DNA of 64,000 nucleotides, from NCBI GenBank assembly GCA_000002435.2, contig CM018792.1; one strand, given 5' to 3'. The position numbers and the translations under genes are program-made. The notes below the pieces were generated by a model. The model made no database searches and was not told the origin of the DNA. It saw only the letters and a program-made list of their open reading frames with translations. This document shows positions 5,187 through 42,817 of the stretch, piece by piece. Every line of letters starts with the position of its first letter. Within the stretch, counting starts at the first letter, position 1. The DNA comes from Giardia intestinalis. Lineage: Eukaryota.

Positions 5187-5208
5187 CCACTATCACACAC
5201 TGCACAGC

Positions 5209-5225
5209 ATTCACTACCTAAGTCA
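5209..5225 (-). promoter_or_regulatory. VSP stop codon plus extended polyadenylation signal TGACTTAGGTAGTGAAT (AGTRAAY core); representative of a site repeated after every cassette
   Basis: The motif immediately follows or overlaps the TGA after ...CRGKA in every unit. U1 has ACTCAGGTAGTAAAC at 3430-3444. It matches the conserved Giardia VSP 3' element. Confidence 0.75.
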
Positions 5226-7046
5226 CGCCTTCCCTCTACACACGAACCACCAGCAGAGGAAGCCGACGAGGCCCCCCACGACGGCGACCACAGCCACGGA
5301 GATCCCCGCGATGGCCCCCGCGGAGAGCCCGCTCCTGTTGGCGCCAGAGGACACGCACCTGCCACCCTCTAGTCTGTACCCATCACTGCACTGGCCGCAC
5401 TTGTTCTCCTCGCTGCACCTGACGCACCCGTCGATACTGCAGGCGATGCACTGGGAGCCGTCCAGGCTGGGCCTCTGGTCTTTACTGGTACAGCCCTCGC
5501 ACTTATCGCCTGCTCCACAGTGCGAACATCCACTAACGGTACATGCGAAGCACCCGCTCCCAGCCAGGTTGGGCTTGTTGTTGCCGCTACACGCTGTGCA
5601 CGTGGCGGGGGCCATGCCAGGAGCCTCTAGCTGTGTCGGGGCTGTACATGCTGAGCAGCCATCTACTCCCACATATGCCTTAGCAGTATCACCAGTGCCT
5701 GTCAGTGTGCCTAGGGGGTTGCTACAAGCCAACACGGACTGATCAGTGTTGGATGCCCCTGGGACCAGGAAGTACCTATTGTTGGCCGCCTCTGTGCATA
5801 TCCCACTACTATCTGCTGTCTTGCACATATAGTTGCCAGGCTGAGCTGATACACTATAACAGCCACCCATGTATAGGAAGTACCCCGTAGTACATGATGT
5901 ACAGACATGGTTGTTACAAGTATTACTTTGAGCATCACTATTACATATACCATCGATAGGGAACTTATTGGTCTCTCCACAGTATGAACAATAGTGCTTT
6001 GCATTGCCCTTATCATCTATTATCATGGCATCGCAAGCTCCAGAGGTACCACCACAAGCTGTAGGATCCTCACAAGTCTTGGTACATGTGACAGAGCCAG
6101 GACTGCTATCGCTCTGCTTGCGATAGTTGGGCTTACAATCGGTGCACTTGAAAGTATTGCCATCATTCGAGCAGACACTGCATCCATCGATGCCACCTTT
6201 GGCTGTGTCACTACAAGGGACGCACTCCTTTGTTACACCCTCGGTTTTTAGGAAGTATCCCGGCATGCATTCAGTACATTTGTTAATGTCAGTTTCAGCA
6301 GTACACTTTGCACAGGTATCAGCGCATTTCTTCGTACAAGTATTAGTCTCAAGAAAACGACCCGATAGGCATTCAGAGCACGTTGTTTTGGTACCTGCCT
6401 CCTTGGTGCATTTGTTGCAATCGGCAACACCCTTGTTTGTATTCTCATTATTTCCACTAATATCACCACATAGATAACAGGCTGAGTCATCGTCTGCCTT
6501 GAAGTGATTCTCATCCACACATCCAGAGCTCATATCAACACAGGTTGTCGTTCCATCCAGCTCTGTCTTTACCTTCTTATTACCGCAGTCACTGCATACC
6601 GGCTTCTGTAGCTTTGCATCGTACGTGCAAGCAGTGCACTCTGGTATGCCCCCCTGCTCTGCTGCACCGTTACAGGCTGTGCACTTGCCGGTGCTTGGGT
6701 CGGGGTACTGGTTATTATCGCAGGTTTTTGAGCACGACCCGTCTGACTTCAGATAGAAGCCCGCTTTACAAGATGAACACTGATTCTGACCGGCCCCGGT
6801 ACATGTGGCACAGTTGTCATTACATTTGGTACATGCCTGAGAGTCCATGTAGTATCCATCTCTGCAGGTACTACACGTGGCAGGTCCTGTACTACTGTCT
6901 GACTTGGTACACTGTGCGCAGTTAGCCACCCCCGTATATCCATCTGCTCCATTGATATCGGAGCACAGTATGCACTCCCTTCCCTTCTCTGGTGTTGCAG
7001 CCGGGTTCTTGAACAGGCCGTTAGCTGTATTACACTCAGTGCACAC
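5223..7046 (-). CDS. VSP cassette U2 (family B), 5'-truncated; identical to U5 and U7
   Basis: 607 aa ending [10 protein letters not shown], then TGA and ACTTAGGTAGTGAAT. The ORF 'M' is GTG at 7044-7046. The frame is open upstream only to a TAG in the spacer (W-S-E-I-CTKAEGGVCTEC...). Confidence 0.8.
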   Translation of the reverse strand: MCTECNTANGLFKNPAATPEKGRECILCSDINGADGYTGVANCAQCTKSDSSTGPATCSTCRDGYYMDSQACTKCNDNCATCTGAGQNQCSSCKAGFYLKSDGSCSKTCDNNQYPDPSTGKCTACNGAAEQGGIPECTACTYDAKLQKPVCSDCGNKKVKTELDGTTTCVDMSSGCVDENHFKADDDSACYLCGDISGNNENTNKGVADCNKCTKEAGTKTTCSECLSGRFLETNTCTKKCADTCAKCTAETDINKCTECMPGYFLKTEGVTKECVPCSDTAKGGIDGCSVCSNDGNTFKCTDCKPNYRKQSDSSPGSVTCTKTCEDPTACGGTSGACDAMIIDDKGNAKHYCSYCGETNKFPIDGICNSDAQSNTCNNHVCTSCTTGYFLYMGGCYSVSAQPGNYMCKTADSSGICTEAANNRYFLVPGASNTDQSVLACSNPLGTLTGTGDTAKAYVGVDGCSACTAPTQLEAPGMAPATCTACSGNNKPNLAGSGCFACTVSGCSHCGAGDKCEGCTSKDQRPSLDGSQCIACSIDGCVRCSEENKCGQCSDGYRLEGGRCVSSGANRSGLSAGAIAGISVAVVAVVGGLVGFLCWWFVCRGKA

Positions 7047-7168
7047 TCCTCCCTCAGCCTTTGTACATATCTCACTCCACTATCATACTATCACACGCTA
7101 TCACCCATTATCACCCTCTATCACACATTATCACCCATTATCATCACTCATAGCATTCACTACCTAAG
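7047..7168 (-). repeat. Inter-cassette spacer (122-nt class) made of imperfect GTGATA-rich ~20-nt tandem repeats (minus strand GGGTGATAATGTGTGATAGAGGGTGATAATGGGTGATAGCGTGTGATAGTATGATAGTGGAGTGAG)
   Basis: On the plus strand: tatcacacattatcacccattatcatcac.... It recurs at 10841-10962, 12787-12908, 14604-14725, 16550-16671, 18367-18488, 23903-24024, 31549-31670 and 40871-40992. Shorter 36-, 59- and 67-nt versions occur at the other junctions. Confidence 0.85.
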
Positions 7169-9013
7169 TCACGCCTTCCCTCTACACACGAACCACCAGC
7201 AGAGGAAGCCCACGAGGCCCCCCACGACAGCGACCACAGCCACGGAGATCCCCGCGATGGCCCCCGCGGAGAGCCCGCTCCTGTTGGCGCCAGAGGACAC
7301 GCACCTGCCACCCTCTAGTCTGTACCCATCACTGCACTGGCCGCACTTGTTCTCCTCGCTGCACCTGACGCACCCGTCGATACTGCAGGCGATGCACTGG
7401 GAGCCGTCCAGGCTGGGCCTCTGGTCTTTACTGGTACAGCCCTCGCACTTATCGCCTGCTCCACAGTGCGAACATCCACTAACGGTACATGCGAAGCACC
7501 CGCTCCCAGCCAGGTTGGGCTTGTTGTTGCCGCTACACGCTGTGCACGTGGCGGGGGCCATGCCAGGAGCCTCTAGCTGTGTCGGGGCTGTACATGCTGA
7601 GCAGCCATCTACTCCCACATATGCCTTAGCAGTATCACCAGTGCCTGTCAGTGTGCCTAGGGGGTTGCTACAAGCCAACACGGACTGATCAGTGTTGGAT
7701 GCCCCTGGGACCAGGAAGTACTTATTACTTGCTGCCTCTGTGCATATCCCATTACTACTTGATGCCTTGCACATGAAGCTACCTGGTTCTTGACCAACCT
7801 TATAACAGCCTCCCATATATAAGAAGTACCCTTGAGCACACTGTGTACATGTATGACTGTCACAGGTATTAGTTCCTTTCTTATTATTATCACTAGTACA
7901 TATACCATCAATAGGGAACTTATTAGCCTCTCCACAGTAAGAACAATAGTGCTTTGTGGTGCCCTGATCATCTATTATCATGGCATCACAGGCGCCAGAG
8001 GTACCACCGCAAGCCGTTGTATCCTCGCAGGTCTTTGTACATGTGACCCCAGTTGAAGGGGTACCGTTTTGCTTGTAGTTGGGCTTACAGGAGTTGCAGG
8101 TCAACGAGCCAGAGAAGGTGCACGTTGCACATCCATCGATGCCCCCCTGTGCATTATCACAAGCAACGCACTCACCAGTAGGACCACTGCCTTTCATGAA
8201 GAATCCAGGCTTGCATTTAGTACACTGATTATTGCCAGTTTGAGTGCAGGTGGCACAATTATCACCACAGGCTGCGCATGTAACCGTACCACTACCACTA
8301 CTGTAGTATCCAGCTAAGCACTCTGAGCAGGTTGGATTGGCACTTGCTGTCTTCGTGCAAGCCTTACAGCCAGCAATGCCTTTGTTCTTTGGGTCTGATC
8401 CGCTGGTATCGCTGCACAAGACACACGCAGCATCACCATCTGCCTTGAAGTGATCAGCATCCTCGCAGCCAGAGCTTATATCGACGCATGTCGTGGTGCC
8501 ATCGATGGCCGTCTTCACCTTCTTATTGTTATTACAGGCGGTGCACTGGGGCTTACTGACAGTCGCATTGTACTTACAGGTAGTACATGCTTGATCTATC
8601 GTACTGCATTCCTTGCACGTTCCAGACTCTGGGTCTGGATAAACGGTGCTCGTGCATTGATCACTAGTTACGCAAGTCTTATCACCCTTCAAGTACTTCC
8701 CCTCTGGACACGATGTGCACTGGGCCGCCGATGTCTCACAGGTCAGACAAGTACCATCACACTTGCTACATGCCTGAAAGTCCTTGTAGTACCCTGCTTG
8801 ACAGGCAGTACACGTGGCTGCCCCCTTATTACTATCTGACTTGGTGCATGTGGCGCAGTTAGCCACCCCCGTATACCCATCTGCTCCCGTGGCATCATGA
8901 CAGAGTATGCACTCCCTTCCCTTCTCTGGTGCTGTAGCAGGGTTCTGGAATACGTACTTGTTATCTGTCTTACAAGCAGTGCACAGTCCATTACTGGCTG
9001 CTGTGCATATCAC
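7169..9013 (-). CDS. VSP cassette U3 (A body + B C-terminal block), 5'-truncated
   Basis: 614 aa. Identical to U1 up to ...AKAYVGVDGCS, then switches to the B-type tail ACTAPTQLEAPGMAPATC...SDGYRLEGGRCVSSGANRSG. CRGKA tail and polyA motif present. Confidence 0.8.
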   Translation of the reverse strand: MICTAASNGLCTACKTDNKYVFQNPATAPEKGRECILCHDATGADGYTGVANCATCTKSDSNKGAATCTACQAGYYKDFQACSKCDGTCLTCETSAAQCTSCPEGKYLKGDKTCVTSDQCTSTVYPDPESGTCKECSTIDQACTTCKYNATVSKPQCTACNNNKKVKTAIDGTTTCVDISSGCEDADHFKADGDAACVLCSDTSGSDPKNKGIAGCKACTKTASANPTCSECLAGYYSSGSGTVTCAACGDNCATCTQTGNNQCTKCKPGFFMKGSGPTGECVACDNAQGGIDGCATCTFSGSLTCNSCKPNYKQNGTPSTGVTCTKTCEDTTACGGTSGACDAMIIDDQGTTKHYCSYCGEANKFPIDGICTSDNNKKGTNTCDSHTCTQCAQGYFLYMGGCYKVGQEPGSFMCKASSSNGICTEAASNKYFLVPGASNTDQSVLACSNPLGTLTGTGDTAKAYVGVDGCSACTAPTQLEAPGMAPATCTACSGNNKPNLAGSGCFACTVSGCSHCGAGDKCEGCTSKDQRPSLDGSQCIACSIDGCVRCSEENKCGQCSDGYRLEGGRCVSSGANRSGLSAGAIAGISVAVVAVVGGLVGFLCWWFVCRGKA

Positions 9014-9049
9014 CCACTATCACACACTGCACAGCATTCACTACCTAAG

Positions 9050-10840
9050 TCACGCCTTCCCTCTACACACGAACCACCAGCAGAGGAAGCCGACGAGGCC
9101 CCCCACGACGGCGACCACAGCCACGGAGATCCCCGCGATGGCGCCCGTGGAGAGCCCGCTCCTGTTGGTGCTCGTAGACACACAGGAGGTCCCACTGCTG
9201 TCAGGGCTGTATCCACTGTTGCACACACAGACAGAGTTATCATCAGTGGAGTTGCTGGGGCAGCCATCCACGCATGACTTCCTCCCAGGGCTCACCTTCT
9301 TACCACTACTACACACCTCGCACATGTCATCCCTGTTGCAGTGGGAGCATCCACTAATGGCACATGAGAAGCACCCACTGCCGTCCCTGTTGGGCTTCCT
9401 ATCACTGTCACAGGAGGTACACACAGCAGCAGCCATACCACCCTCAGTCAGAGCTGTTGGGGCTGTGCACTGTGAGCAGCCATCCACCCCCACGTATGCC
9501 TTAGCAGTACCTTGAGGGTCTACTAGTGTGCCTAGGGGGTTGCCACAGGCTAGTACAGACTGATCAGTAGCCTTTGCTTCTGGGACTACGAAGTACCTAT
9601 CATTGGCATTGGGAGTAGTACAGACACCAGCTGTTGTTGCTTCGGAGCACATGAGGCTACCAGGCACCTCTGTTGCTTTATAACAGCCACCCATATAGAG
9701 GAAGTAGTTGTTGGTGCACCGCGTACATACACCATCGGCGCAGGTATTACCTGCAAGTGCATTGGTGCACTTCCCATTAATGGGGCCATAGCCGGCGCCA
9801 ACACACTTTGAACAGTAAGAGAGCATGCTGCCGTCGTTGCCGACCACGATGGCGTCGCAGGCCCCTGCTGTCCCCCCGCATGCAGTCTCATCTTCACAGG
9901 TCTTTGTACACGTATAGTCATCCCCTGCATCTCCATTAAGCTGTTTCTTATAGTTAGGCTTACAGTCAGTACATTTGAATCCACCACTGTTAGAGCATGC
10001 ACTGCACCCATCGCGGCCACCATTTGCTGTATCACTACATGAGATGCACTCACCAGAGGAGCTATCCTTCAAGAAGTACCCTTGCTTGCAGGTCGTGCAT
10101 TGGTCTTTTGTATCCTTAGCACAGGTGGCACAGTTCTCACCACAGGCTGTGCATGTAGCGGTATTACCACTTGCACTATTGTAATATCCATCGAGGCACT
10201 TTGTACATGTAGTTTTAGAGGAGCAGGTATCACAACCTAGAATCCCACCATTTTTAGTATCACCACATGGAACACAAGCTTTTGGAGATTGTTCAAGGAA
10301 GTGCGTATTGCCACTTGTGCACTCTGCCTCCGCAACACACGTCGCTGACCCATCGGGGTTCACCTTAAGAAGCAGGTTTCCTCCACTATTACACCCAGTG
10401 CACACAGGCTTCTGAAGAGTGTCGCTGTATGCACACGTAGCACATTCATTGACACTTGTGTCCGTGCAGGCCTTGCATTGGCCTGTTTTTGGGTCTGCAT
10501 ACTTACCATTGTCACATTGATTAGCATCCACACACTTGTCAGCCTTCAGGAACTTCCCCTCAACGCAGGCGGTACACTGAGTCGGAGTATCAGCTGAGCA
10601 GGCAGAGCAGCCCTCTCCGCACTTCACACATGCACTGTCCTTCTTAACGAACCCATCTTGACAGGCAGTACATGTGACAGGTCCTGCACTCTGTGGTGCC
10701 TGACACTGTGCGCAGTTAGCCACCCCCGTATATCCATCTGCTCCCTTGATATCATGACAGAGGATGCACTCACTACCCTTCTCTGGTGTTGCAGCAGGGT
10801 TCTTGAACAGGCCGTTATCTGCCTTACAAGTAGTGCACAC
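9050..10840 (-). CDS. VSP cassette U4 (family C with long C-terminal variant), 5'-truncated
   Basis: 596 aa beginning CTTCKADNGLFKNPAATPEKGSECILCHDIKGADGY. C-terminal block ...CFSCAISGCSHCNRDDMCEVCSSGKKVSPGRKSCVDGCPSNSTDDNSVCVCNSGYSPDSSGTSCVSTSTNRSG..CRGKA. Confidence 0.8.
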   Translation of the reverse strand: MCTTCKADNGLFKNPAATPEKGSECILCHDIKGADGYTGVANCAQCQAPQSAGPVTCTACQDGFVKKDSACVKCGEGCSACSADTPTQCTACVEGKFLKADKCVDANQCDNGKYADPKTGQCKACTDTSVNECATCAYSDTLQKPVCTGCNSGGNLLLKVNPDGSATCVAEAECTSGNTHFLEQSPKACVPCGDTKNGGILGCDTCSSKTTCTKCLDGYYNSASGNTATCTACGENCATCAKDTKDQCTTCKQGYFLKDSSSGECISCSDTANGGRDGCSACSNSGGFKCTDCKPNYKKQLNGDAGDDYTCTKTCEDETACGGTAGACDAIVVGNDGSMLSYCSKCVGAGYGPINGKCTNALAGNTCADGVCTRCTNNYFLYMGGCYKATEVPGSLMCSEATTAGVCTTPNANDRYFVVPEAKATDQSVLACGNPLGTLVDPQGTAKAYVGVDGCSQCTAPTALTEGGMAAAVCTSCDSDRKPNRDGSGCFSCAISGCSHCNRDDMCEVCSSGKKVSPGRKSCVDGCPSNSTDDNSVCVCNSGYSPDSSGTSCVSTSTNRSGLSTGAIAGISVAVVAVVGGLVGFLCWWFVCRGKA

Positions 10841-10962
10841 TCCTCCCTCAGCCTTTGTACATATCTCACTCCACTATCATACTATCACACACTATCACCC
10901 ATTATCACCCTCTATCACACATTATCACCCATTATCATCACTCATAGCATTCACTACCTAAG

Positions 10963-12786
10963 TCACGCCTTCCCTCTACACACGAACCACCAGCAGAGGA
11001 AGCCCACGAGGCCCCCCACGACAGCGACCACAGCCACGGAGATCCCCGCGATGGCCCCCGCGGAGAGCCCGCTCCTGTTGGCGCCAGAGGACACGCACCT
11101 GCCACCCTCTAGTCTGTACCCATCACTGCACTGGCCGCACTTGTTCTCCTCGCTGCACCTGACGCACCCGTCGATACTGCAGGCGATGCACTGGGAGCCG
11201 TCCAGGCTGGGCCTCTGGTCTTTACTGGTACAGCCCTCGCACTTATCGCCTGCTCCACAGTGCGAACATCCACTAACGGTACATGCGAAGCACCCGCTCC
11301 CAGCCAGGTTGGGCTTGTTGTTGCCGCTACACGCTGTGCACGTGGCGGGGGCCATGCCAGGAGCCTCTAGCTGTGTCGGGGCTGTACATGCTGAGCAGCC
11401 ATCTACTCCCACATATGCCTTAGCAGTATCACCAGTGCCTGTCAGTGTGCCTAGGGGGTTGCTACAAGCCAACACGGACTGATCAGTGTTGGATGCCCCT
11501 GGGACCAGGAAGTACCTATTGTTGGCCGCCTCTGTGCATATCCCACTACTATCTGCTGTCTTGCACATATAGTTGCCAGGCTGAGCTGATACACTATAAC
11601 AGCCACCCATGTATAGGAAGTACCCCGTAGTACATGATGTACAGACATGGTTGTTACAAGTATTACTTTGAGCATCACTATTACATATACCATCGATAGG
11701 GAACTTATTGGTCTCTCCACAGTATGAACAATAGTGCTTTGCATTGCCCTTATCATCTATTATCATGGCATCGCAAGCTCCAGAGGTACCACCACAAGCT
11801 GTAGGATCCTCACAAGTCTTGGTACATGTGACAGAGCCAGGACTGCTATCGCTCTGCTTGCGATAGTTGGGCTTACAATCGGTGCACTTGAAAGTATTGC
11901 CATCATTCGAGCAGACACTGCATCCATCGATGCCACCTTTGGCTGTGTCACTACAAGGGACGCACTCCTTTGTTACACCCTCGGTTTTTAGGAAGTATCC
12001 CGGCATGCATTCAGTACATTTGTTAATGTCAGTTTCAGCAGTACACTTTGCACAGGTATCAGCGCATTTCTTCGTACAAGTATTAGTCTCAAGAAAACGA
12101 CCCGATAGGCATTCAGAGCACGTTGTTTTGGTACCTGCCTCCTTGGTGCATTTGTTGCAATCGGCAACACCCTTGTTTGTATTCTCATTATTTCCACTAA
12201 TATCACCACATAGATAACAGGCTGAGTCATCGTCTGCCTTGAAGTGATTCTCATCCACACATCCAGAGCTCATATCAACACAGGTTGTCGTTCCATCCAG
12301 CTCTGTCTTTACCTTCTTATTACCGCAGTCACTGCATACCGGCTTCTGTAGCTTTGCATCGTACGTGCAAGCAGTGCACTCTGGTATGCCCCCCTGCTCT
12401 GCTGCACCGTTACAGGCTGTGCACTTGCCGGTGCTTGGGTCGGGGTACTGGTTATTATCGCAGGTTTTTGAGCACGACCCGTCTGACTTCAGATAGAAGC
12501 CCGCTTTACAAGATGAACACTGATTCTGACCGGCCCCGGTACATGTGGCACAGTTGTCATTACATTTGGTACATGCCTGAGAGTCCATGTAGTATCCATC
12601 TCTGCAGGTACTACACGTGGCAGGTCCTGTACTACTGTCTGACTTGGTACACTGTGCGCAGTTAGCCACCCCCGTATATCCATCTGCTCCATTGATATCG
12701 GAGCACAGTATGCACTCCCTTCCCTTCTCTGGTGTTGCAGCCGGGTTCTTGAACAGGCCGTTAGCTGTATTACACTCAGTGCACAC
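10963..12786 (-). CDS. VSP cassette U5 (family B), identical to U2 and U7
   Basis: The 607-aa translation is identical to U2 and U7. CRGKA tail present. Confidence 0.8.
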   Translation of the reverse strand: MCTECNTANGLFKNPAATPEKGRECILCSDINGADGYTGVANCAQCTKSDSSTGPATCSTCRDGYYMDSQACTKCNDNCATCTGAGQNQCSSCKAGFYLKSDGSCSKTCDNNQYPDPSTGKCTACNGAAEQGGIPECTACTYDAKLQKPVCSDCGNKKVKTELDGTTTCVDMSSGCVDENHFKADDDSACYLCGDISGNNENTNKGVADCNKCTKEAGTKTTCSECLSGRFLETNTCTKKCADTCAKCTAETDINKCTECMPGYFLKTEGVTKECVPCSDTAKGGIDGCSVCSNDGNTFKCTDCKPNYRKQSDSSPGSVTCTKTCEDPTACGGTSGACDAMIIDDKGNAKHYCSYCGETNKFPIDGICNSDAQSNTCNNHVCTSCTTGYFLYMGGCYSVSAQPGNYMCKTADSSGICTEAANNRYFLVPGASNTDQSVLACSNPLGTLTGTGDTAKAYVGVDGCSACTAPTQLEAPGMAPATCTACSGNNKPNLAGSGCFACTVSGCSHCGAGDKCEGCTSKDQRPSLDGSQCIACSIDGCVRCSEENKCGQCSDGYRLEGGRCVSSGANRSGLSAGAIAGISVAVVAVVGGLVGFLCWWFVCRGKA

Positions 12787-12908
12787 TCCTCCCTCAGCCT
12801 TTGTACATATCTCACTCCACTATCATACTATCACACACTATCACCCATTATCACCCTCTATCACACATTATCACCCATTATCATCACTCATAGCATTCAC
12901 TACCTAAG

Positions 12909-14603
12909 TCACGCCTTCCCTCTACACACGAACCACCAGCAGAGGAAGCCCACGAGGCCCCCCACGACAGCGACCACAGCCACGGAGATCCCCGCGATGG
13001 CCCCCGCGGAGAGCCCGCTCCTGTTGGCGCCAGAGGACACACACTTACCATTGTCTAGACTGAAGCCACTGTTGCACTCCCCACACACACCGTCCACCAC
13101 ACAGCTCTTACAACCACCCACAGAGCACAGGACACACCCACTGCCGTCCCTGTTGGGCTTCCTATCACTGTCACAGGAGGTACACACAGCAGCAGCCATA
13201 CCACCCTCAGTCAGAGCTGTTGGGGCTGTGCACTGTGAGCAGCCATCCACCCCCACGTATGCCTTAGCAGTACCTTGAGGGTCTACTAGTGTGCCTAGGG
13301 GGTTGCCACAGGCTAGTACAGACTGATCAGTAGCCTTTGCTTCTGGGACTACGAAGTACCTATCATTGGCATTGGGAGTAGTACAGACACCAGCTGTTGT
13401 TGCTTCGGAGCACATGAGGCTACCAGGCACCTCTGTTGCTTTATAACAGCCACCCATATAGAGGAAGTAGTTGTTGGTGCACCGCGTACATACACCATCG
13501 GCGCAGGTATTACCTGCAAGTGCATTGGTGCACTTCCCATTAATGGGGCCATAGCCGGCGCCAACACACTTTGAACAGTAAGAGAGCATGCTGCCGTCGT
13601 TGCCGACCACGATGGCGTCGCAGGCCCCTGCTGTCCCCCCGCATGCAGTCTCATCTTCACAGGTCTTTGTACACGTATAGTCATCCCCTGCATCTCCATT
13701 AAGCTGTTTCTTATAGTTAGGCTTACAGTCAGTACATTTGAATCCACCACTGTTAGAGCATGCACTGCACCCATCGCGGCCACCATTTGCTGTATCACTA
13801 CATGAGATGCACTCACCAGAGGAGCTATCCTTCAAGAAGTACCCTTGCTTGCAGGTCGTGCATTGGTCTTTTGTATCCTTAGCACAGGTGGCACAGTTCT
13901 CACCACAGGCTGTGCATGTAGCGGTATTACCACTTGCACTATTGTAATATCCATCGAGGCACTTTGTACATGTAGTTTTAGAGGAGCAGGTATCACAACC
14001 TAGAATCCCACCATTTTTAGTATCACCACATGGAACACAAGCTTTTGGAGATTGTTCAAGGAAGTGCGTATTGCCACTTGTGCACTCTGCCTCCGCAACA
14101 CACGTCGCTGACCCATCGGGGTTCACCTTAAGAAGCAGGTTTCCTCCACTATTACACCCAGTGCACACAGGCTTCTGAAGAGTGTCGCTGTATGCACACG
14201 TAGCACATTCATTGACACTTGTGTCCGTGCAGGCCTTGCATTGGCCTGTTTTTGGGTCTGCATACTTACCATTGTCACATTGATTAGCATCCACACACTT
14301 GTCAGCCTTCAGGAACTTCCCCTCAACGCAGGCGGTACACTGAGTCGGAGTATCAGCTGAGCAGGCAGAGCAGCCCTCTCCGCACTTCACACATGCACTG
14401 TCCTTCTTAACGAACCCATCTTGACAGGCAGTACATGTGACAGGTCCTGCACTCTGTGGTGCCTGACACTGTGCGCAGTTAGCCACCCCCGTATATCCAT
14501 CTGCTCCCTTGATATCATGACAGAGGATGCACTCACTACCCTTCTCTGGTGTTGCAGCCGGGTTCTTGAACAGGCCGTTAGCTGTATTACACTCAGTGCA
14601 CAC
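12909..14603 (-). CDS. VSP cassette U6 (B-type first 22 aa, C body, short C/D tail), 5'-truncated
   Basis: 564 aa. Starts CTECNTANGLFKNPAATPEKG (B), then SECILCHDIKGADGY... (C). Tail ...CVLCSVGGCKSCVVDGVCGECNSGFSLDNGKCVSSGANRSG..CRGKA. Confidence 0.8.
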   Translation of the reverse strand: MCTECNTANGLFKNPAATPEKGSECILCHDIKGADGYTGVANCAQCQAPQSAGPVTCTACQDGFVKKDSACVKCGEGCSACSADTPTQCTACVEGKFLKADKCVDANQCDNGKYADPKTGQCKACTDTSVNECATCAYSDTLQKPVCTGCNSGGNLLLKVNPDGSATCVAEAECTSGNTHFLEQSPKACVPCGDTKNGGILGCDTCSSKTTCTKCLDGYYNSASGNTATCTACGENCATCAKDTKDQCTTCKQGYFLKDSSSGECISCSDTANGGRDGCSACSNSGGFKCTDCKPNYKKQLNGDAGDDYTCTKTCEDETACGGTAGACDAIVVGNDGSMLSYCSKCVGAGYGPINGKCTNALAGNTCADGVCTRCTNNYFLYMGGCYKATEVPGSLMCSEATTAGVCTTPNANDRYFVVPEAKATDQSVLACGNPLGTLVDPQGTAKAYVGVDGCSQCTAPTALTEGGMAAAVCTSCDSDRKPNRDGSGCVLCSVGGCKSCVVDGVCGECNSGFSLDNGKCVSSGANRSGLSAGAIAGISVAVVAVVGGLVGFLCWWFVCRGKA

Positions 14604-14725
14604 TCCTCCCTCAGCCTTTGTACATATCTCACTCCACTATCATACTATCACACGCTATCACCCATTATCACCCTCTATCACACATTATCACCCATTATCA
14701 TCACTCATAGCATTCACTACCTAAG

Positions 14726-16549
14726 TCACGCCTTCCCTCTACACACGAACCACCAGCAGAGGAAGCCCACGAGGCCCCCCACGACAGCGACCACAGCCAC
14801 GGAGATCCCCGCGATGGCCCCCGCGGAGAGCCCGCTCCTGTTGGCGCCAGAGGACACGCACCTGCCACCCTCTAGTCTGTACCCATCACTGCACTGGCCG
14901 CACTTGTTCTCCTCGCTGCACCTGACGCACCCGTCGATACTGCAGGCGATGCACTGGGAGCCGTCCAGGCTGGGCCTCTGGTCTTTACTGGTACAGCCCT
15001 CGCACTTATCGCCTGCTCCACAGTGCGAACATCCACTAACGGTACATGCGAAGCACCCGCTCCCAGCCAGGTTGGGCTTGTTGTTGCCGCTACACGCTGT
15101 GCACGTGGCGGGGGCCATGCCAGGAGCCTCTAGCTGTGTCGGGGCTGTACATGCTGAGCAGCCATCTACTCCCACATATGCCTTAGCAGTATCACCAGTG
15201 CCTGTCAGTGTGCCTAGGGGGTTGCTACAAGCCAACACGGACTGATCAGTGTTGGATGCCCCTGGGACCAGGAAGTACCTATTGTTGGCCGCCTCTGTGC
15301 ATATCCCACTACTATCTGCTGTCTTGCACATATAGTTGCCAGGCTGAGCTGATACACTATAACAGCCACCCATGTATAGGAAGTACCCCGTAGTACATGA
15401 TGTACAGACATGGTTGTTACAAGTATTACTTTGAGCATCACTATTACATATACCATCGATAGGGAACTTATTGGTCTCTCCACAGTATGAACAATAGTGC
15501 TTTGCATTGCCCTTATCATCTATTATCATGGCATCGCAAGCTCCAGAGGTACCACCACAAGCTGTAGGATCCTCACAAGTCTTGGTACATGTGACAGAGC
15601 CAGGACTGCTATCGCTCTGCTTGCGATAGTTGGGCTTACAATCGGTGCACTTGAAAGTATTGCCATCATTCGAGCAGACACTGCATCCATCGATGCCACC
15701 TTTGGCTGTGTCACTACAAGGGACGCACTCCTTTGTTACACCCTCGGTTTTTAGGAAGTATCCCGGCATGCATTCAGTACATTTGTTAATGTCAGTTTCA
15801 GCAGTACACTTTGCACAGGTATCAGCGCATTTCTTCGTACAAGTATTAGTCTCAAGAAAACGACCCGATAGGCATTCAGAGCACGTTGTTTTGGTACCTG
15901 CCTCCTTGGTGCATTTGTTGCAATCGGCAACACCCTTGTTTGTATTCTCATTATTTCCACTAATATCACCACATAGATAACAGGCTGAGTCATCGTCTGC
16001 CTTGAAGTGATTCTCATCCACACATCCAGAGCTCATATCAACACAGGTTGTCGTTCCATCCAGCTCTGTCTTTACCTTCTTATTACCGCAGTCACTGCAT
16101 ACCGGCTTCTGTAGCTTTGCATCGTACGTGCAAGCAGTGCACTCTGGTATGCCCCCCTGCTCTGCTGCACCGTTACAGGCTGTGCACTTGCCGGTGCTTG
16201 GGTCGGGGTACTGGTTATTATCGCAGGTTTTTGAGCACGACCCGTCTGACTTCAGATAGAAGCCCGCTTTACAAGATGAACACTGATTCTGACCGGCCCC
16301 GGTACATGTGGCACAGTTGTCATTACATTTGGTACATGCCTGAGAGTCCATGTAGTATCCATCTCTGCAGGTACTACACGTGGCAGGTCCTGTACTACTG
16401 TCTGACTTGGTACACTGTGCGCAGTTAGCCACCCCCGTATATCCATCTGCTCCATTGATATCGGAGCACAGTATGCACTCCCTTCCCTTCTCTGGTGTTG
16501 CAGCCGGGTTCTTGAACAGGCCGTTAGCTGTATTACACTCAGTGCACAC
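14726..16549 (-). CDS. VSP cassette U7 (family B), identical to U2 and U5
   Basis: 607-aa translation identical to U2 and U5. The 3763-bp period U5+U6 = U7+U8 marks a higher-order repeat. Confidence 0.8.
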   Translation of the reverse strand: MCTECNTANGLFKNPAATPEKGRECILCSDINGADGYTGVANCAQCTKSDSSTGPATCSTCRDGYYMDSQACTKCNDNCATCTGAGQNQCSSCKAGFYLKSDGSCSKTCDNNQYPDPSTGKCTACNGAAEQGGIPECTACTYDAKLQKPVCSDCGNKKVKTELDGTTTCVDMSSGCVDENHFKADDDSACYLCGDISGNNENTNKGVADCNKCTKEAGTKTTCSECLSGRFLETNTCTKKCADTCAKCTAETDINKCTECMPGYFLKTEGVTKECVPCSDTAKGGIDGCSVCSNDGNTFKCTDCKPNYRKQSDSSPGSVTCTKTCEDPTACGGTSGACDAMIIDDKGNAKHYCSYCGETNKFPIDGICNSDAQSNTCNNHVCTSCTTGYFLYMGGCYSVSAQPGNYMCKTADSSGICTEAANNRYFLVPGASNTDQSVLACSNPLGTLTGTGDTAKAYVGVDGCSACTAPTQLEAPGMAPATCTACSGNNKPNLAGSGCFACTVSGCSHCGAGDKCEGCTSKDQRPSLDGSQCIACSIDGCVRCSEENKCGQCSDGYRLEGGRCVSSGANRSGLSAGAIAGISVAVVAVVGGLVGFLCWWFVCRGKA

Positions 16550-16671
16550 TCCTCCCTCAGCCTTTGTACATATCTCACTCCACTATCATACTATCACACA
16601 CTATCACCCATTATCACCCTCTATCACACATTATCACCCATTATCATCACTCATAGCATTCACTACCTAAG

Positions 16672-18366
16672 TCACGCCTTCCCTCTACACACGAACCACC
16701 AGCAGAGGAAGCCCACGAGGCCCCCCACGACAGCGATGACAGCGACGGAGATCCCCGCGATGGCCCCCGTGGAGAGCCCGCTCCTGTTGGCGCCAGAGGA
16801 CACACACTTACCATTGTCTAGACTGAAGCCACTGTTGCACTCCCCACACACACCGTCCACCACACAGCTCTTACAACCACCCACAGAGCACAGGACACAC
16901 CCACTGCCGTCCCTGTTGGGCTTCCTATCACTGTCACAGGAGGTACACACAGCAGCAGCCATACCACCCTCAGTCAGAGCTGTTGGGGCTGTGCACTGTG
17001 AGCAGCCATCCACCCCCACGTATGCCTTAGCAGTACCTTGAGGGTCTACTAGTGTGCCTAGGGGGTTGCCACAGGCTAGTACAGACTGATCAGTAGCCTT
17101 TGCTTCTGGGACTACGAAGTACCTATCATTGGCATTGGGAGTAGTACAGACACCAGCTGTTGTTGCTTCGGAGCACATGAGGCTACCAGGCACCTCTGTT
17201 GCTTTATAACAGCCACCCATATAGAGGAAGTAGTTGTTGGTGCACCGCGTACATACACCATCGGCGCAGGTATTACCTGCAAGTGCATTGGTGCACTTCC
17301 CATTAATGGGGCCATAGCCGGCGCCAACACACTTTGAACAGTAAGAGAGCATGCTGCCGTCGTTGCCGACCACGATGGCGTCGCAGGCCCCTGCTGTCCC
17401 CCCGCATGCAGTCTCATCTTCACAGGTCTTTGTACACGTATAGTCATCCCCTGCATCTCCATTAAGCTGTTTCTTATAGTTAGGCTTACAGTCAGTACAT
17501 TTGAATCCACCACTGTTAGAGCATGCACTGCACCCATCGCGGCCACCATTTGCTGTATCACTACATGAGATGCACTCACCAGAGGAGCTATCCTTCAAGA
17601 AGTACCCTTGCTTGCAGGTCGTGCATTGGTCTTTTGTATCCTTAGCACAGGTGGCACAGTTCTCACCACAGGCTGTGCATGTAGCGGTATTACCACTTGC
17701 ACTATTGTAATATCCATCGAGGCACTTTGTACATGTAGTTTTAGAGGAGCAGGTATCACAACCTAGAATCCCACCATTTTTAGTATCACCACATGGAACA
17801 CAAGCTTTTGGAGATTGTTCAAGGAAGTGCGTATTGCCACTTGTGCACTCTGCCTCCGCAACACACGTCGCTGACCCATCGGGGTTCACCTTAAGAAGCA
17901 GGTTTCCTCCACTATTACACCCAGTGCACACAGGCTTCTGAAGAGTGTCGCTGTATGCACACGTAGCACATTCATTGACACTTGTGTCCGTGCAGGCCTT
18001 GCATTGGCCTGTTTTTGGGTCTGCATACTTACCATTGTCACATTGATTAGCATCCACACACTTGTCAGCCTTCAGGAACTTCCCCTCAACGCAGGCGGTA
18101 CACTGAGTCGGAGTATCAGCTGAGCAGGCAGAGCAGCCCTCTCCGCACTTCACACATGCACTGTCCTTCTTAACGAACCCATCTTGACAGGCAGTACATG
18201 TGACAGGTCCTGCACTCTGTGGTGCCTGACACTGTGCGCAGTTAGCCACCCCCGTATATCCATCTGCTCCCTTGATATCATGACAGAGGATGCACTCACT
18301 ACCCTTCTCTGGTGTTGCAGCAGGGTTCTTGAACAGGCCGTTATCTGCCTTACAAGTAGTGCACAC
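16672..18366 (-). CDS. VSP cassette U8 (family C), near-identical to U6
   Basis: 564 aa. Differs from U6 only in the first ~8 aa and in the TM region (STGAIAGISVAVIAVV). Confidence 0.8.
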   Translation of the reverse strand: MCTTCKADNGLFKNPAATPEKGSECILCHDIKGADGYTGVANCAQCQAPQSAGPVTCTACQDGFVKKDSACVKCGEGCSACSADTPTQCTACVEGKFLKADKCVDANQCDNGKYADPKTGQCKACTDTSVNECATCAYSDTLQKPVCTGCNSGGNLLLKVNPDGSATCVAEAECTSGNTHFLEQSPKACVPCGDTKNGGILGCDTCSSKTTCTKCLDGYYNSASGNTATCTACGENCATCAKDTKDQCTTCKQGYFLKDSSSGECISCSDTANGGRDGCSACSNSGGFKCTDCKPNYKKQLNGDAGDDYTCTKTCEDETACGGTAGACDAIVVGNDGSMLSYCSKCVGAGYGPINGKCTNALAGNTCADGVCTRCTNNYFLYMGGCYKATEVPGSLMCSEATTAGVCTTPNANDRYFVVPEAKATDQSVLACGNPLGTLVDPQGTAKAYVGVDGCSQCTAPTALTEGGMAAAVCTSCDSDRKPNRDGSGCVLCSVGGCKSCVVDGVCGECNSGFSLDNGKCVSSGANRSGLSTGAIAGISVAVIAVVGGLVGFLCWWFVCRGKA

Positions 18367-18488
18367 TCCTCCCTCAGCCTTTGTACATATCTCACTCCAC
18401 TATCATACTATCACACACTATCACCCATTATCACCCTCTATCACACATTATCACCCATTATCATCACTCATAGCATTCACTACCTAAG

Positions 18489-20333
18489 TCACGCCTTCCC
18501 TCTACACACGAACCACCAGCAGAGGAAGCCCACGAGGCCCCCCACGACAGCGACCACAGCCACGGAGATCCCCGCGATGGCCCCCGCGGAGAGCCCGCTC
18601 CTGTTGGCGCCAGAGGACACGCACCTGCCACCCTCTAGTCTGTACCCATCACTGCACTGGCCGCACTTGTTCTCCTCGCTGCACCTGACGCACCCGTCGA
18701 TACTGCAGGCGATGCACTGGGAGCCGTCCAGGCTGGGCCTCTGGTCTTTACTGGTACAGCCCTCGCACTTATCGCCTGCTCCACAGTGCGAACATCCACT
18801 AACGGTACATGCGAAGCACCCGCTCCCAGCCAGGTTGGGCTTGTTGTTGCCGCTACACGCTGTGCACGTGGCGGGGGCCATGCCAGGAGCCTCTAGCTGT
18901 GTCGGGGCTGTACATGCTGAGCAGCCATCTACTCCCACATATGCCTTAGCAGTATCACCAGTGCCTGTCAGTGTGCCTAGGGGGTTGCTACAAGCCAACA
19001 CGGACTGATCAGTGTTGGATGCCCCTGGGACCAGGAAGTACTTATTACTTGCTGCCTCTGTGCATATCCCATTACTACTTGATGCCTTGCACATGAAGCT
19101 ACCTGGTTCTTGACCAACCTTATAACAGCCTCCCATATATAAGAAGTACCCTTGAGCACACTGTGTACATGTATGACTGTCACAGGTATTAGTTCCTTTC
19201 TTATTATTATCACTAGTACATATACCATCAATAGGGAACTTATTAGCCTCTCCACAGTAAGAACAATAGTGCTTTGTGGTGCCCTGATCATCTATTATCA
19301 TGGCATCACAGGCGCCAGAGGTACCACCGCAAGCCGTTGTATCCTCGCAGGTCTTTGTACATGTGACCCCAGTTGAAGGGGTACCGTTTTGCTTGTAGTT
19401 GGGCTTACAGGAGTTGCAGGTCAACGAGCCAGAGAAGGTGCACGTTGCACATCCATCGATGCCCCCCTGTGCATTATCACAAGCAACGCACTCACCAGTA
19501 GGACCACTGCCTTTCATGAAGAATCCAGGCTTGCATTTAGTACACTGATTATTGCCAGTTTGAGTGCAGGTGGCACAATTATCACCACAGGCTGCGCATG
19601 TAACCGTACCACTACCACTACTGTAGTATCCAGCTAAGCACTCTGAGCAGGTTGGATTGGCACTTGCTGTCTTCGTGCAAGCCTTACAGCCAGCAATGCC
19701 TTTGTTCTTTGGGTCTGATCCGCTGGTATCGCTGCACAAGACACACGCAGCATCACCATCTGCCTTGAAGTGATCAGCATCCTCGCAGCCAGAGCTTATA
19801 TCGACGCATGTCGTGGTGCCATCGATGGCCGTCTTCACCTTCTTATTGTTATTACAGGCGGTGCACTGGGGCTTACTGACAGTCGCATTGTACTTACAGG
19901 TAGTACATGCTTGATCTATCGTACTGCATTCCTTGCACGTTCCAGACTCTGGGTCTGGATAAACGGTGCTCGTGCATTGATCACTAGTTACGCAAGTCTT
20001 ATCACCCTTCAAGTACTTCCCCTCTGGACACGATGTGCACTGGGCCGCCGATGTCTCACAGGTCAGACAAGTACCATCACACTTGCTACATGCCTGAAAG
20101 TCCTTGTAGTACCCTGCTTGACAGGCAGTACACGTGGCTGCCCCCTTATTACTATCTGACTTGGTGCATGTGGCGCAGTTAGCCACCCCCGTATACCCAT
20201 CTGCTCCCGTGGCATCATGACAGAGTATGCACTCATTACCAGGGGTCACCTTCTCTGCCCCATTCTGGAATATGTACTGGTTATCTGTCTTACAAGCAGT
20301 GCACACTCCATCCTTGGCTGCTGTGCATATCAT
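18489..20333 (-). CDS. VSP cassette U9 (D-type first ~35 aa, A body, B tail); fortuitous ATG, no signal peptide
   Basis: 614 aa. MICTAAKDGVCTACKTDNQYIFQNGAEKVTPGNECILCHDATGADGY, then A-type body, then B-type C-terminal block. ATG at 20331-20333 but no signal sequence. Confidence 0.8.
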   Translation of the reverse strand: MICTAAKDGVCTACKTDNQYIFQNGAEKVTPGNECILCHDATGADGYTGVANCATCTKSDSNKGAATCTACQAGYYKDFQACSKCDGTCLTCETSAAQCTSCPEGKYLKGDKTCVTSDQCTSTVYPDPESGTCKECSTIDQACTTCKYNATVSKPQCTACNNNKKVKTAIDGTTTCVDISSGCEDADHFKADGDAACVLCSDTSGSDPKNKGIAGCKACTKTASANPTCSECLAGYYSSGSGTVTCAACGDNCATCTQTGNNQCTKCKPGFFMKGSGPTGECVACDNAQGGIDGCATCTFSGSLTCNSCKPNYKQNGTPSTGVTCTKTCEDTTACGGTSGACDAMIIDDQGTTKHYCSYCGEANKFPIDGICTSDNNKKGTNTCDSHTCTQCAQGYFLYMGGCYKVGQEPGSFMCKASSSNGICTEAASNKYFLVPGASNTDQSVLACSNPLGTLTGTGDTAKAYVGVDGCSACTAPTQLEAPGMAPATCTACSGNNKPNLAGSGCFACTVSGCSHCGAGDKCEGCTSKDQRPSLDGSQCIACSIDGCVRCSEENKCGQCSDGYRLEGGRCVSSGANRSGLSAGAIAGISVAVVAVVGGLVGFLCWWFVCRGKA

Positions 20334-20392
20334 ACTCCACTATCACCCTCTATCACACACTATCACACACTGTACAGCATTCACTACCTAAG

Positions 20393-33428: not shown

Positions 33429-33495
33429 ACTCCACTATCACACTATCACCCTCTATTACCCATTATCACACATTGTATAGCATTCACTACCTAAG

Positions 33496-35229: not shown

Positions 35230-35265
35230 CCACTATCACACATTGTACAGCATTCACTACCCAAG

Positions 35266-37032: not shown

Positions 37033-37099
37033 ACTCCACTATCACACATTATCACACTATCACCTTCTATCACACATTGTACAGCATTCACTACCTAAG

Positions 37100-39070: not shown

Positions 39071-39082
39071 TCACTACCTAAG

Positions 39083-42750: not shown

Positions 42751-42817
42751 ACTCCACTATCACACTATCACCCTCTATTACCCATTATCACACATTGTAT
42801 AGCATTCACTACCTAAG

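Follow-up and report, generated by a model that had tools for sequence, protein, structure and literature searches.

Organization of the array

The locus described here raises the question of how neighbouring copies of one gene come to be composed of the same blocks in different combinations, and whether such copies contribute to genes that can be expressed. It lies, with ordinary genes on both sides, in a 64-kb window (the whole stretch of DNA analysed) whose sequence matches the Giardia intestinalis WB C6 reference. The features that define it are:

3444..45076, minus strand: whole head-to-tail VSP array (22 CRGKA-stop ends, ORF list, PF03302 matches)
42818..44887, minus strand: U22, head gene of 689 aa with leader MFQLIPLFVASALMAAC; the one complete VSP and the 5'-most unit
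44883..44889, minus strand: TAATGTT initiator (Inr) motif at the U22 start codon
7047..7168, minus strand: example of an inter-unit spacer, beginning with CTTAGGTAGTGAATGCT (the extended VSP poly(A) signal) right after the upstream stop codon

The array is 42 kb in length and consists of 22 Giardia VSP units on the minus strand, numbered U1-U22 by rising plus-strand coordinate (the scheme of the earlier note on this DNA). The units are 1770-1983 nt in size, with a longer head unit. The CRGKA-stop ends correspond to 22 reading frames, and all units belong to the Pfam VSP family PF03302 (E-values: 2.5e-43 for U22 and 1.8e-28 for U3). Each has the Cys-rich CXXC ectodomain of the Giardia VSP family, with about 70 Cys per unit kept between families, and the C-terminal transmembrane helix and CRGKA tail; the last roughly 110 nt are almost invariant across units.

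A linear array is defined by two or more adjacent head-to-tail units separated by 0-241 bp, with a start in the first member only. Here, 22 units on one strand are separated by spacers of 36-122 nt, and U22 alone has an upstream non-coding region (about 2.6 kb with no convincing ORF) and an Inr as defined by Adam 2010 (PMC2996952). This motif, YAATGTT, occurs once in the 64-kb window, compared to 14 matches expected by chance. U22 is the only unit with the signal peptide and Inr of a complete, expressible VSP, and it is 100% identical to KAE8304460.1/XP_037902103.1, a VSP of G. intestinalis WB C6. The other 21 of the 22 units are 5'-truncated cassettes lacking Inr, leader and proper start: in a mechanical ORF list, 17 of the 21 cassette ORFs begin with GTG or TTG, and a leader is present in none. 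Under the definition in Xu et al. 2020 (PMC7000408), these cassettes are psiVSPs.

The inter-unit spacers fall into seven classes of 36-122 nt. In spacer 7047..7168, the extended poly(A) signal, which is specific to VSP/pVSP (Rodriguez-Walker et al. 2022 preprint), is followed by imperfect 10-nt GTGATAG-type repeats, after which the reading frame resumes at ...EICTKAEGG. The G-rich spacer was judged by eye as a possible G-quadruplex, a reading dropped because its G-runs are too widely spaced.

Mosaic structure of the cassettes

A nucleotide alignment of all 22 units (2765 columns) resolves six core families that differ at 30-37% of nucleotides (62-70% identical overall), and exact tracts shared between units were identified by a diagonal exact-match scan of the array. 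The 21 cassettes, all on the minus strand, are composed as follows:

U1, 3444..5222, minus strand: family A body with a tail of its own (QCTAPTALTEGG...); ends the array, with unique sequence beyond it
U2, 5223..7168, minus strand: family B; 99.8% to U5 and U7
U3, 7169..9049, minus strand: family A body (0 mismatches to U1) and B tail (0 mismatches to U5)
U4, 9050..10962, minus strand: family C with long C tail
U5, 10963..12908, minus strand: family B; 100.0% identical to U7
U6, 12909..14725, minus strand: B-type spacer and first 22 codons, family C body, short tail
U7, 14726..16671, minus strand: family B
U8, 16672..18488, minus strand: family C with short tail
U9, 18489..20392, minus strand: D-type 5' end, family A body, B tail
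U10, 20393..22209, minus strand: family D
U11, 22210..24024, minus strand: family C body and D-like tail; frameshift at the junction
U12, 24025..25998, minus strand: family E and B tail; keeps about 20 more 5' codons than other cassettes
U13, 25999..27867, minus strand: B-type spacer, E blocks, block type common only to U14; 3' end frameshifted
U14, 27868..29715, minus strand: 5' end common to U18, E blocks, U13-type block; 3' end frameshifted
U15, 29716..31670, minus strand: family B to DAMIIDD, U17-shared segment, B, U19-shared tail
U16, 31671..33495, minus strand: family D; identical to U21
U17, 33496..35265, minus strand: family A, U15-shared segment, mixed tail
U18, 35266..37099, minus strand: 5' end common to U14, F core common to U19, E blocks, diverged tail
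U19, 37100..39082, minus strand: E, F, A, B, then U15-shared tail
U20, 39083..40992, minus strand: C, 145 columns with no close donor among the units, A, C tail
U21, 40993..42817, minus strand: family D; identical to U16

The earlier note had described cassettes shuffled in discrete blocks at 7169-18366. That interval covers U3-U8, but the phenomenon spans 3444-45076. The multiple alignment with breakpoint detection that it had called for recovered discrete blocks with junctions, and all six of its statements on individual blocks were borne out (Fisher p from 4e-6 to 1e-143). U1 and U3 are identical over 1430 columns and then carry different tails (201 differences in 451 columns, p=1e-143). 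The B start of U6 differs from U5 at 1 of 187 columns as far as ...PEKG and at 792 of 1798 thereafter; past that point its C body matches U4 with 0 differences in 1266. U15 follows family B to DAMIIDD (4/1157 differences from U5) and then switches family (56/291), and the E, F, A and B blocks chained in U19 match U12, U18, U1 and U15-type sequence with 1, 0, 0 and 0 mismatches, respectively. U20 had been read as C-A-C; these three blocks are present, but 145 columns without a donor (36 mismatches to the best match) make it C-x-A-C.

Seventeen exact tracts are at least 1200 nt in length in the diagonal scan, and several of them span unit borders. The longest (2209 nt, 31540-33748 = 40862-43070) passes through U16. 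The pairs U5-U6 and U7-U8 constitute a two-unit duplication with a period of 3763 nt (at that offset, tracts of 2082 and 1551 nt match exactly). Shared tracts begin and end abruptly, such that 0.5-2.2 kb without a mismatch lie beside 30-45% divergence; they run across spacers, and their ends are out of register with the unit borders. Segments of about 150 nt to 2.2 kb have recently been copied or exchanged, and at least 16 exchange junctions are needed, based on the number of extra left/right block combinations. This count was used in place of a cycle-rank (four-gamete-like) count on block classes, which gave a rank of 0-1 and is too strict for multi-allelic blocks. No proximity effect along the array was detected (Mantel p=0.33), sharing showing no fall-off by distance. 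Inside identical contexts, point differences are limited to six isolated events, four non-synonymous and two synonymous.

Because tracts of 0.5-2.2 kb with zero mismatches adjoin sequence with 30-45% divergence, the proposal that the blocks were shuffled by intra-array gene conversion and/or unequal exchange holds as a description of what has happened. The block pattern is reticulate, and duplication with divergence cannot have produced it.

Exchange junctions

Junctions that lie in the conserved motifs are:

14539..14558, minus strand: B to C in U6; 20 nt, AATPEKG, within NPAATPEKG
38073..38126, minus strand: F to A in U19; its two parents agree over all 54 nt (GPTGECVACDNAQGGIDG), the longest such tract between them (P=0.03); motif GECVACDNAQGGIDG
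30514..30534, minus strand: B to U17-type in U15; 21 nt, DAMIIDD, motif ...CDAMIIDD
39897-39904: junction in U20 at the ...CDAMIIDD motif
7620..7666, minus strand: switch from A body to B tail in U3, at the ...TAKAY/AKAYVGVDGCS motif; 47 nt (NPLGTLTGTGDTAKAY), recurring in U9 and U19
3793-3807: junction in U1 at the ...TAKAY/AKAYVGVDGCS motif
37560-37606: junction in U19 at the ...TAKAY/AKAYVGVDGCS motif

Breakpoints had been proposed to recur at four conserved motifs acting as micro-homology anchors. About 45% of the junctions do lie inside these motifs, but roughly half lie outside them, and several "junctions" fall inside shared blocks of more than 100 nt. When conservation was tested against chance, invariant columns made up 34% of the junction zones and 24% of the alignment elsewhere (circular-shift p=0.037), so the zones are modestly more conserved; none falls in alignment columns 1180-1660, where the core is divergent. 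For about 6 of 10 zones, the parents share a tract of identity 21-74 nt in length, at or near the longest between them (null median 3-5 nt). In four zones, strict identity extends for only 3-12 nt, with the surrounding 30-40 nt nearly identical.

The proposal of anchors holds only in part: besides these 3-12-nt junctions, the zones show no special conservation at synonymous sites. For invariant amino acids, codon identity was 41% in the zones compared to 40% elsewhere, giving no nucleotide-level signal beyond protein conservation, and the same test on junction zones without the transmembrane tail was likewise negative (41% vs 29%, p=0.11). Constraint on the protein accounts for the conservation of the zones, and the "anchors" look like its by-product rather than a dedicated DNA signal.

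The head gene and links to other VSPs

Behind its own 5' end, U22 is a patchwork of at least five segments of U15-, U1-, U12-, U14- and U17-type, which under a copying model show 0, 0, 0, 1 and 0 mismatches to the cassettes, in that order. It thus belongs to the exchange network. One of these pieces is short:

44241..44392, minus strand: A-type patch in U22, 155 columns; strict identity at its two junctions covers only 4 nt (44389-44392) and 3 nt (44241-44243)

An old independent clone, UPI000017B5CF, equals U22 at 675 of 677 aa, across all U22 junctions. Because the older clone has the same mosaic except for these 2 aa, the U22 mosaic is stable on a laboratory time-scale.

Between families, dN/dS is 0.26-0.42, dS is near 1 and 69-76 of 70-76 Cys residues are kept. 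Frames of about 575-656 codons are open in 18 of the 21 cassettes; the remaining three (U11, U13 and U14) have frameshifted tails. These values indicate that the six core families are old and diverged under protein-coding constraint. Complete VSPs on other contigs contain exact cassette blocks of 59-83 aa against a background of 52-65%; exact cassette blocks are present in U22, P0015, P0002 and P0016. The blocks that cassettes have in common with U22 and with complete VSPs elsewhere in the genome, on other chromosomes, show that cassettes and expressible genes have exchanged sequence in at least one direction. The exchange footprint was read from one assembly; the direction and timing of transfers, and the "ongoing" exchange of the earlier note, lie outside such data.

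Origin of the mosaics

We consider it very probable that this is a psiVSP array, comprising one initiator-bearing gene and 21 cassettes, in which segments have been swapped by ordinary homologous recombination. Misaligned tandem paralogues would recombine by gene conversion in break repair and by unequal sister-chromatid exchange. Exchange ends would resolve preferentially at sites of greatest local similarity between families; these places would be the structurally conserved Cys-rich motifs, which are most alike because the protein is conserved there, and a dedicated recombination signal would not be needed. The predicted consequence is new ectodomain combinations that, over evolutionary time, could reach expressible genes such as U22 and VSPs on other chromosomes.

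Four points count against this explanation. First, strict identity of 3-12 nt, as in four zones, is short for classical homologous exchange. Second, simple neighbour-biased unequal exchange predicts a fall-off of sharing with distance, and none is seen. Third, cassette integrity is not strictly maintained, because three tails are frameshifted. Fourth, perfect identity within repeats of this kind could be overstated as a result of short-read polishing. A use of the cassettes is also disfavoured by the psiVSPs of G. muris, which are reported to be untranscribed (PMC7641422).

It is possible, though we doubt it, that the cassettes are evolutionary junk: discarded, truncated VSP copies, expanding and scrambled like any tandem repeat and adding nothing to expressed VSPs. 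Adam 2010 (PMC2996952) lists this among the options. It would fit the loss of start codon, leader and Inr in 21 units, the three frameshifted tails and the untranscribed G. muris psiVSPs (PMC7641422); the 4:2 ratio of recent non-synonymous to synonymous differences fits neutrality, with six events being too few to inform. The exact cassette blocks in U22 and in complete VSPs on other chromosomes argue against it, as do the 18 of 21 frames that have remained open despite a dS near 1 between families.

The earlier note had likened the array to vls and VSG mosaic formation, a parallel that is one of architecture only. In the vls system, the cassettes are missing both gene ends and do not change, and sequence is transferred in one direction only, at high frequency during infection. 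Zhang and colleagues reportedly described this arrangement, a vlsE expression site with silent vls cassettes, for Borrelia burgdorferi in 1997. The layout of the present array does resemble it, in that one complete, Inr-bearing gene, itself a patchwork of cassette-identical segments, lies beside 21 contiguous promoter-less cassettes that keep open frames and the Cys scaffold. The short B- and A-type patches of U22 (152 and 155 columns) are, moreover, identical to cassettes in which the same sequence has long contiguous family context. Even so, a programmed, high-frequency vls-like or VSG-like system, copying silent donors one-way into U22 during infection to switch antigens, is improbable for four reasons. 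First, the donors have themselves been altered, and exchange has not been confined to U22: the cassettes, whose 3' end in contrast to that of the Borrelia cassettes is complete with stop codon and poly(A) signal, are patchworks of each other, and exact tracts extend over the spacers. Second, the U22 mosaic is the same except for 2 aa in the older clone. Third, WB has more than 130 other complete VSP genes (133-136); with so many, U22 is not the one expression site, and published accounts describe switching as epigenetic. Fourth, the junctions carry no dedicated DNA signal. The mosaic VSGs of Trypanosoma brucei (PMC13233330) also involve a large archive with many pseudogenes, from which new antigen genes are assembled by segmental gene conversion with homology-guided junctions, but there the process follows DNA breaks in a telomeric expression site and has been seen experimentally, whereas the Giardia array, in this comparison as in that with Borrelia, is a static footprint.

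Still less credible is an assembly or polishing artefact, in which chimeric units would result from mis-joined or consensus-polished long reads. A 42-kb array exceeds typical read length, and short-read assemblies break before it: contigs of other assemblies with the flanking gene at 47676-48494 end about 1.1-1.6 kb upstream of that gene, short of the array. Exact look-ups for other assemblies or sublines (the 302-2755 protein, U22, U19, U12, P0015 and P0002) returned no record. Two proteins of the 2007 assembly are different mosaics of the same blocks, from which it follows that there is either an error in at least one assembly or variation at the locus, and polishing could partly account for the near absence of point differences in shared tracts. 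However, the older independent clone reproduces all U22 junctions, XP_001704929.1 of the 2007 Sanger assembly equals U1 exactly across the AKAYVGVDGCS junction, GenBank AAN52101.1 ("VSP S6", 390 aa) is 100% identical to U10, and the junction pattern is coherent over many units.

Simple serial duplication and divergence without reticulation, which would account for U5=U7, U16=U21 and the U5-U6/U7-U8 repeat and had been named as a reading that could overturn block shuffling, is refuted by the extra block combinations and by units such as U3, which is 100% identical to different partners by segment (U1 and U5) where those partners are 30-45% apart in both.

Comparison with published Giardia arrays

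Giardia linear arrays and psiVSP arrays have been published (Adam et al. 2010, PMC2996952; Xu et al. 2020, PMC7000408; Rodriguez-Walker et al. 2022 preprint), with "long regions of 100% identity", recombination tests and a cassette or reservoir hypothesis; linear arrays were proposed to be recombination cassettes in 2010 (PMC2996952) and psiVSP arrays were described in 2020 (PMC7000408). The present array shares with them head-to-tail units, short spacers, a first member that alone has an upstream region and Inr, and downstream members that lack Inr, ATG and signal peptide and keep CRGKA and the extended poly(A) signal. The assembly of 2010 had at most 10 units per array, compared to 22 here. 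Tandem pseudogenised VSPs also characterize the psiVSP arrays of Giardia muris (Xu et al. 2020, PMC7641422), but those are almost all telomere-adjacent with few intact VSPs, whereas this one lies between ordinary genes. Both the kind of array and the cassette idea are thus already published, and the finding re-describes a known feature of the reference genome; the published descriptions of Giardia arrays that were consulted contained no block map of the 22-unit array by unit, no coordinates for its junctions and no test of junctions against conservation.

Implications for antigenic variation

Antigenic variation in Giardia is explained today without DNA rearrangement. The genome has 208 annotated psiVSPs, which amount to about as much sequence as the intact repertoire, and their role is called an open question in the literature. 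We regard it as unlikely, if somewhat less so than a programmed vls-like system, that the array is an active donor archive, in which break repair in U22 and dispersed VSPs would copy cassettes and yield new expressed VSPs within a culture or infection. If true, this would add DNA-level antigen diversification where variation is treated as purely epigenetic or post-transcriptional. The array is a testable substrate for the idea, having exact junction coordinates, a head gene made of cassette-identical pieces and cassette blocks in VSPs on other chromosomes; the coordinates and blocks allow the design of junction-specific assays of cassette-to-gene transfer on an observable time-scale.

Organization of the VSP array

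The array (window 3444-45076) consists of 22 consecutive minus-strand reading frames, each terminating in ...CRGKA and a stop codon. These frames match the Giardia variant-specific surface protein (VSP) family PF03302 in Pfam, and a protein search returned 165 matches at E ≤ 1e-50, exclusively Giardia VSPs. The units are numbered U1-U22 by rising plus-strand coordinate, such that transcription runs from U22 to U1. U22 is the head gene and the sole complete VSP, while U1-U21 are 5'-truncated cassettes (psiVSPs). Given the identity of U22 to a WB clone C6 protein, the window agrees with the WB reference genome as published.

Features of the array and its flanks
42818-44887, minus strand: U22, 100% identical to KAE8304460.1/XP_037902103.1, a VSP of G. 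intestinalis WB clone C6 on a 2,761,001-nt contig
22210-24024, minus strand: U11, frameshifted
25999-27867, minus strand: U13, frameshifted
27868-29715, minus strand: U14, frameshifted
7047-7168, 10841-10962, 12787-12908 and 18367-18488: examples of spacers
10658-11482, 14421-15245, 18184-19008 and 23720-24544, plus strand: examples of antisense ORFs
302-2755, minus strand: HCMP/CRMP-type gene for a Cys-rich membrane protein of 817 aa with a signal peptide and a match to the VSP Pfam domain (E = 2e-35)

Among the 22 units, the leader peptide (MFQLIPLFVASALMAAC...) is confined to U22. The U22 ATG is embedded in TAATGTT (44883-44889, minus strand), the VSP initiator motif (Inr) defined by Adam et al. 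2010 (PMC2996952). The 64-kb window has a single YAATGTT, the one at this start codon, compared to a mean of 14 (sd 3.9) in shuffled sequences; it is strongly depleted elsewhere in the window, non-VSP genes included. Each of U1-U21 opens with CTTAGGTAGTGAATGCT, the extended VSP/pVSP poly(A) signal according to a 2022 preprint, immediately behind the stop codon of the upstream unit. In each cassette spacer, this signal is followed by 36-122 nt of imperfect 10-nt GTGATAG-type repeats (ACTATCACNC on the plus strand). The spacers fall into seven classes that differ in copy number, each of which accompanies the 5'-end class of the unit that follows it. The cassettes rejoin the VSP frame at ...EICTKAEGG, approximately 105 codons into U22. 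U12 and U19 retain approximately 20 codons more than the other cassettes, and their spacer repeats are in frame, translating as ...SDSDS....

Eighteen of the 21 cassettes lack a stop codon from the spacer through CRGKA (575-656 codons), while U11, U13 and U14 carry a frameshift 69-124 codons ahead of the end. All three frameshifts lie within alignment columns 2360-2440, which are also rich in junctions (intervals where a unit switches from one identical partner to another). The U11 frameshift, a 5A-to-4A run located exactly on a junction between families C and D, may reflect genuine slippage, inexact exchange or a homopolymer error of long-read sequencing. On the plus strand, 274-aa ORFs antisense to the cassettes cross unit borders; they follow the repetition of the units and probably arise from the skew in codon composition (GC skew about -0.17).

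Downstream of U1, the array gives way to unique sequence. The protein encoded directly downstream (302-2755) has a longer cytoplasmic tail (...CWWFIFRGRRIDASPSTMTLISSKSM) in place of CRGKA, and is thus an HCMP/CRMP-type relative. Upstream of U22 is a region of approximately 2.6 kb (45077-47675) that is partly G+C-rich (63% at 44-46 kb vs. approximately 52% across the array) and in which no convincing ORF was found. Public short-read contigs carrying the gene at 47676-48494 extend approximately 1.1-1.6 kb upstream of that gene, stopping at approximately 46.1-46.6 kb.

Mosaic structure of the units

Following nucleotide alignment of the 22 units with MAFFT, six core families (A-F) were distinguished that are pairwise 62-70% identical. 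The mosaic pattern was read using a window-by-window class map, a block table and a copying-model parse. All three agree that segments of a unit are identical to differing partners, mostly with 0 mismatches, and the mosaic structure proposed in the earlier note is confirmed far beyond chance. Its six specific block statements all hold (Fisher p 4e-6 to 1e-143). U1 and U3 have the same body (0/1430 differences) followed by different tails (201/451). Up to and including ...PEKG, U6 belongs to family B (1/187 vs. U5), after which it is C-type (0/1266 vs. U4), while U15 is B-type up to DAMIIDD (4/1157 vs. U5) before switching (56/291). U19 is a chain of U12-, U18-, U1- and U15-type blocks, in that order (1, 0, 0 and 0 mismatches). 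U20 does contain the C, A and C blocks ascribed to it, with the qualification that 145 columns between the first C and the A have no array donor.

A single duplication history is ruled out: one stretch of U3 matches U1 perfectly and another matches U5 perfectly, yet U1 and U5 are 30-45% different over both stretches. Over the 11 block boundaries, the pattern calls for at least 16 extra left/right combinations of blocks. The longest exact tract is 2209 nt (31540-33748 = 40862-43070). As several exact tracts continue through spacers into the adjoining unit, the shuffled pieces are not modules delimited by the cassettes but tracts of about unit length in arbitrary register. Plain duplications are also present (U5 = U7, U16 = U21 and the two-unit repeat U5-U6/U7-U8, offset 3763).

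Tracts common to at least two units show merely six isolated point differences in the entire alignment, reflecting either very recent homogenisation or short-read polishing that evened out the copies. These recent differences (four non-synonymous and two synonymous) are too few to judge present constraint on the cassettes. The families themselves diverged as coding sequence, with dN/dS of 0.26-0.42 at dS 0.44-1.25 and 69-76 of 70-76 cysteines kept between families.

Short-read assemblies stop before the array. Parts of it are backed by three independent sequences: UPI000017B5CF (an old UniParc entry of 677 aa), which matches U22 at 675/677 positions and spans all U22 junctions; XP_001704929.1 (2007 Sanger assembly), which is identical to the U1 tail and spans the AKAYVGVDGCS junction; and VSP S6. 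The latter (a partial GenBank entry of 390 aa, AAN52101.1, "variant-specific surface protein S6") matches U10 (20393-22209), a cassette with no start codon, at 100% identity and is nearly identical to U16/U21. This match hints that cassettes may be transcribed: if AAN52101.1 derives from cDNA, a psiVSP cassette is transcribed. Two other proteins of the 2007 WB assembly, XP_001703902.1 (P0001) and XP_001705183.1 (P0008), are mosaics of E, F and U13/U14-type blocks in combinations not present in the array. These could represent another array, a locus that varies from one DNA preparation to the next, or chimeras of the Sanger assembly.

Position of the junctions

Breakpoints had been placed at four conserved motifs. 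Every one of these motifs hosts junctions, but together they cover only approximately 45% of the definable junction intervals.

Junctions at the four motifs
14539-14558: U6, at AATPEKG
38073-38126: U19, at GPTGECVACDNAQGGIDG
30514-30534 (U15) and 39897-39904 (U20): at DAMIIDD/TACGGT
U1, U3, U9, U12, U19 and U20: at ...TAKAY(VGVDGCS)

Other junctions lie at CTSCPEGKYLK, YFLYMGGCY, YFLVPG...SVLAC, CTSCD..KPN and in the tail, and the most divergent 480 columns (1180-1660) are avoided by junction zones (alignment regions holding junctions). The zones exceed the remaining alignment in conservation: 34% of columns in zones are invariant vs. 24% elsewhere (p = 0.037 in a circular-shift test, which takes autocorrelation into account). 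At amino acid positions invariant in the six families, codon identity gave no sign of a dedicated nucleotide signal in the zones (41% within vs. 40% outside; 41% vs. 29%, p = 0.11, with the transmembrane tail left out). In approximately six of ten distinct zones, the junction lies inside a 21-74-nt tract that is the longest or nearly so between both parents. The corresponding null, in which crossovers are uniformly placed between the same two parents and the length bias of identity tracts is included, has a median of 3-5 nt. In four zones, strict identity is limited to 3-12 nt, although the sequence around them is almost the same in both parents. The combined Fisher p-value (6e-5) treats the zones as more independent than they are, and several junctions sit within shared blocks of >100 nt from earlier events. 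Similarity within the zones stems from conservation of the protein scaffold, and given no sign of a dedicated nucleotide signal, we read the junctions as ordinary homology-guided exchange rather than as joining by micro-homology. The interpretation offered previously is, as a whole, partly supported.

The head gene and VSPs elsewhere

The 5' end of U22 is unique. Based on the copying model and the alignment, the rest is made up of five cassette-matching segments.

Segments of U22, in order
1: U15-type, 152 columns, 0 mismatches
2: U1-type, 155 columns, 0 mismatches
3: U12-type, 1141 columns, 0 mismatches
4: U14-type, 1 mismatch
5: U17-type, 0 mismatches

The families of the two short patches also occur as long, uninterrupted units in multiple copies, so that U22 would most parsimoniously be the recipient of these patches.

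Complete VSPs on other WB contigs (4.02, 1.49 and 1.97 Mb) contain 42-83-aa exact cassette blocks, at the protein level, in a background of 52-68% identity. P0015 has 83 aa identical to U4/U6/U8/U11 (from TCTKTCED to YFLYMGGCY), P0016 has 59 aa identical to U22, P0023 has 83 aa identical to U10/U16/U21 and P0002 is a fine patchwork of cassette blocks. Exchange thus reaches beyond the array. The U22 leader peptide is also found in P0015 and P0002.

Mechanism and comparison with other systems

The architecture, the reticulate exact tracts, the distribution of junctions and the participation of U22 and dispersed VSPs are directly observed. The process behind them would be misalignment of the tandem paralogues, followed by gene conversion and unequal exchange between sister chromatids. 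Recombination genes are present in Giardia, there are reports of somatic homologous recombination, and long-read studies have found structural variants to be enriched for VSPs. Among the 22 units, distant pairs share no less than close ones, so purely neighbour-biased exchange is not favoured.

The phenomenon is already known in kind. In the VSP "linear arrays" of Adam et al. 2010 (PMC2996952), the first gene is complete and the members downstream have neither Inr nor ATG; the same paper gives "long regions of 100% identity" among array members and significant recombination tests. According to the G. muris genome paper (PMC7641422), psiVSP arrays engage in recombination or segmental gene conversion and are likened to Pneumocystis and T. 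brucei. The parallel with vls and VSG mosaics is thus already published as an analogy; as a claim of membership it fails on one tested feature, in that the donor cassettes of this array are themselves scrambled. The decisive feature would be frequent one-way transfer into an expression site. For T. brucei VSG, repair products of a Cas9 break have been sequenced (PMC13233330). A unit-level block map, junction coordinates and a junction-vs.-conservation test for the 22-unit array were not found in the published Giardia VSP literature examined.

The 2022 preprint regards psiVSPs as a sequence reservoir. This array could plausibly act as such a reservoir for expressible VSPs, and we consider it rather unlikely that it is instead a graveyard. 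It offers a convenient test case for a long-standing question, namely whether the VSP repertoire that Giardia expresses is fed by DNA recombination.
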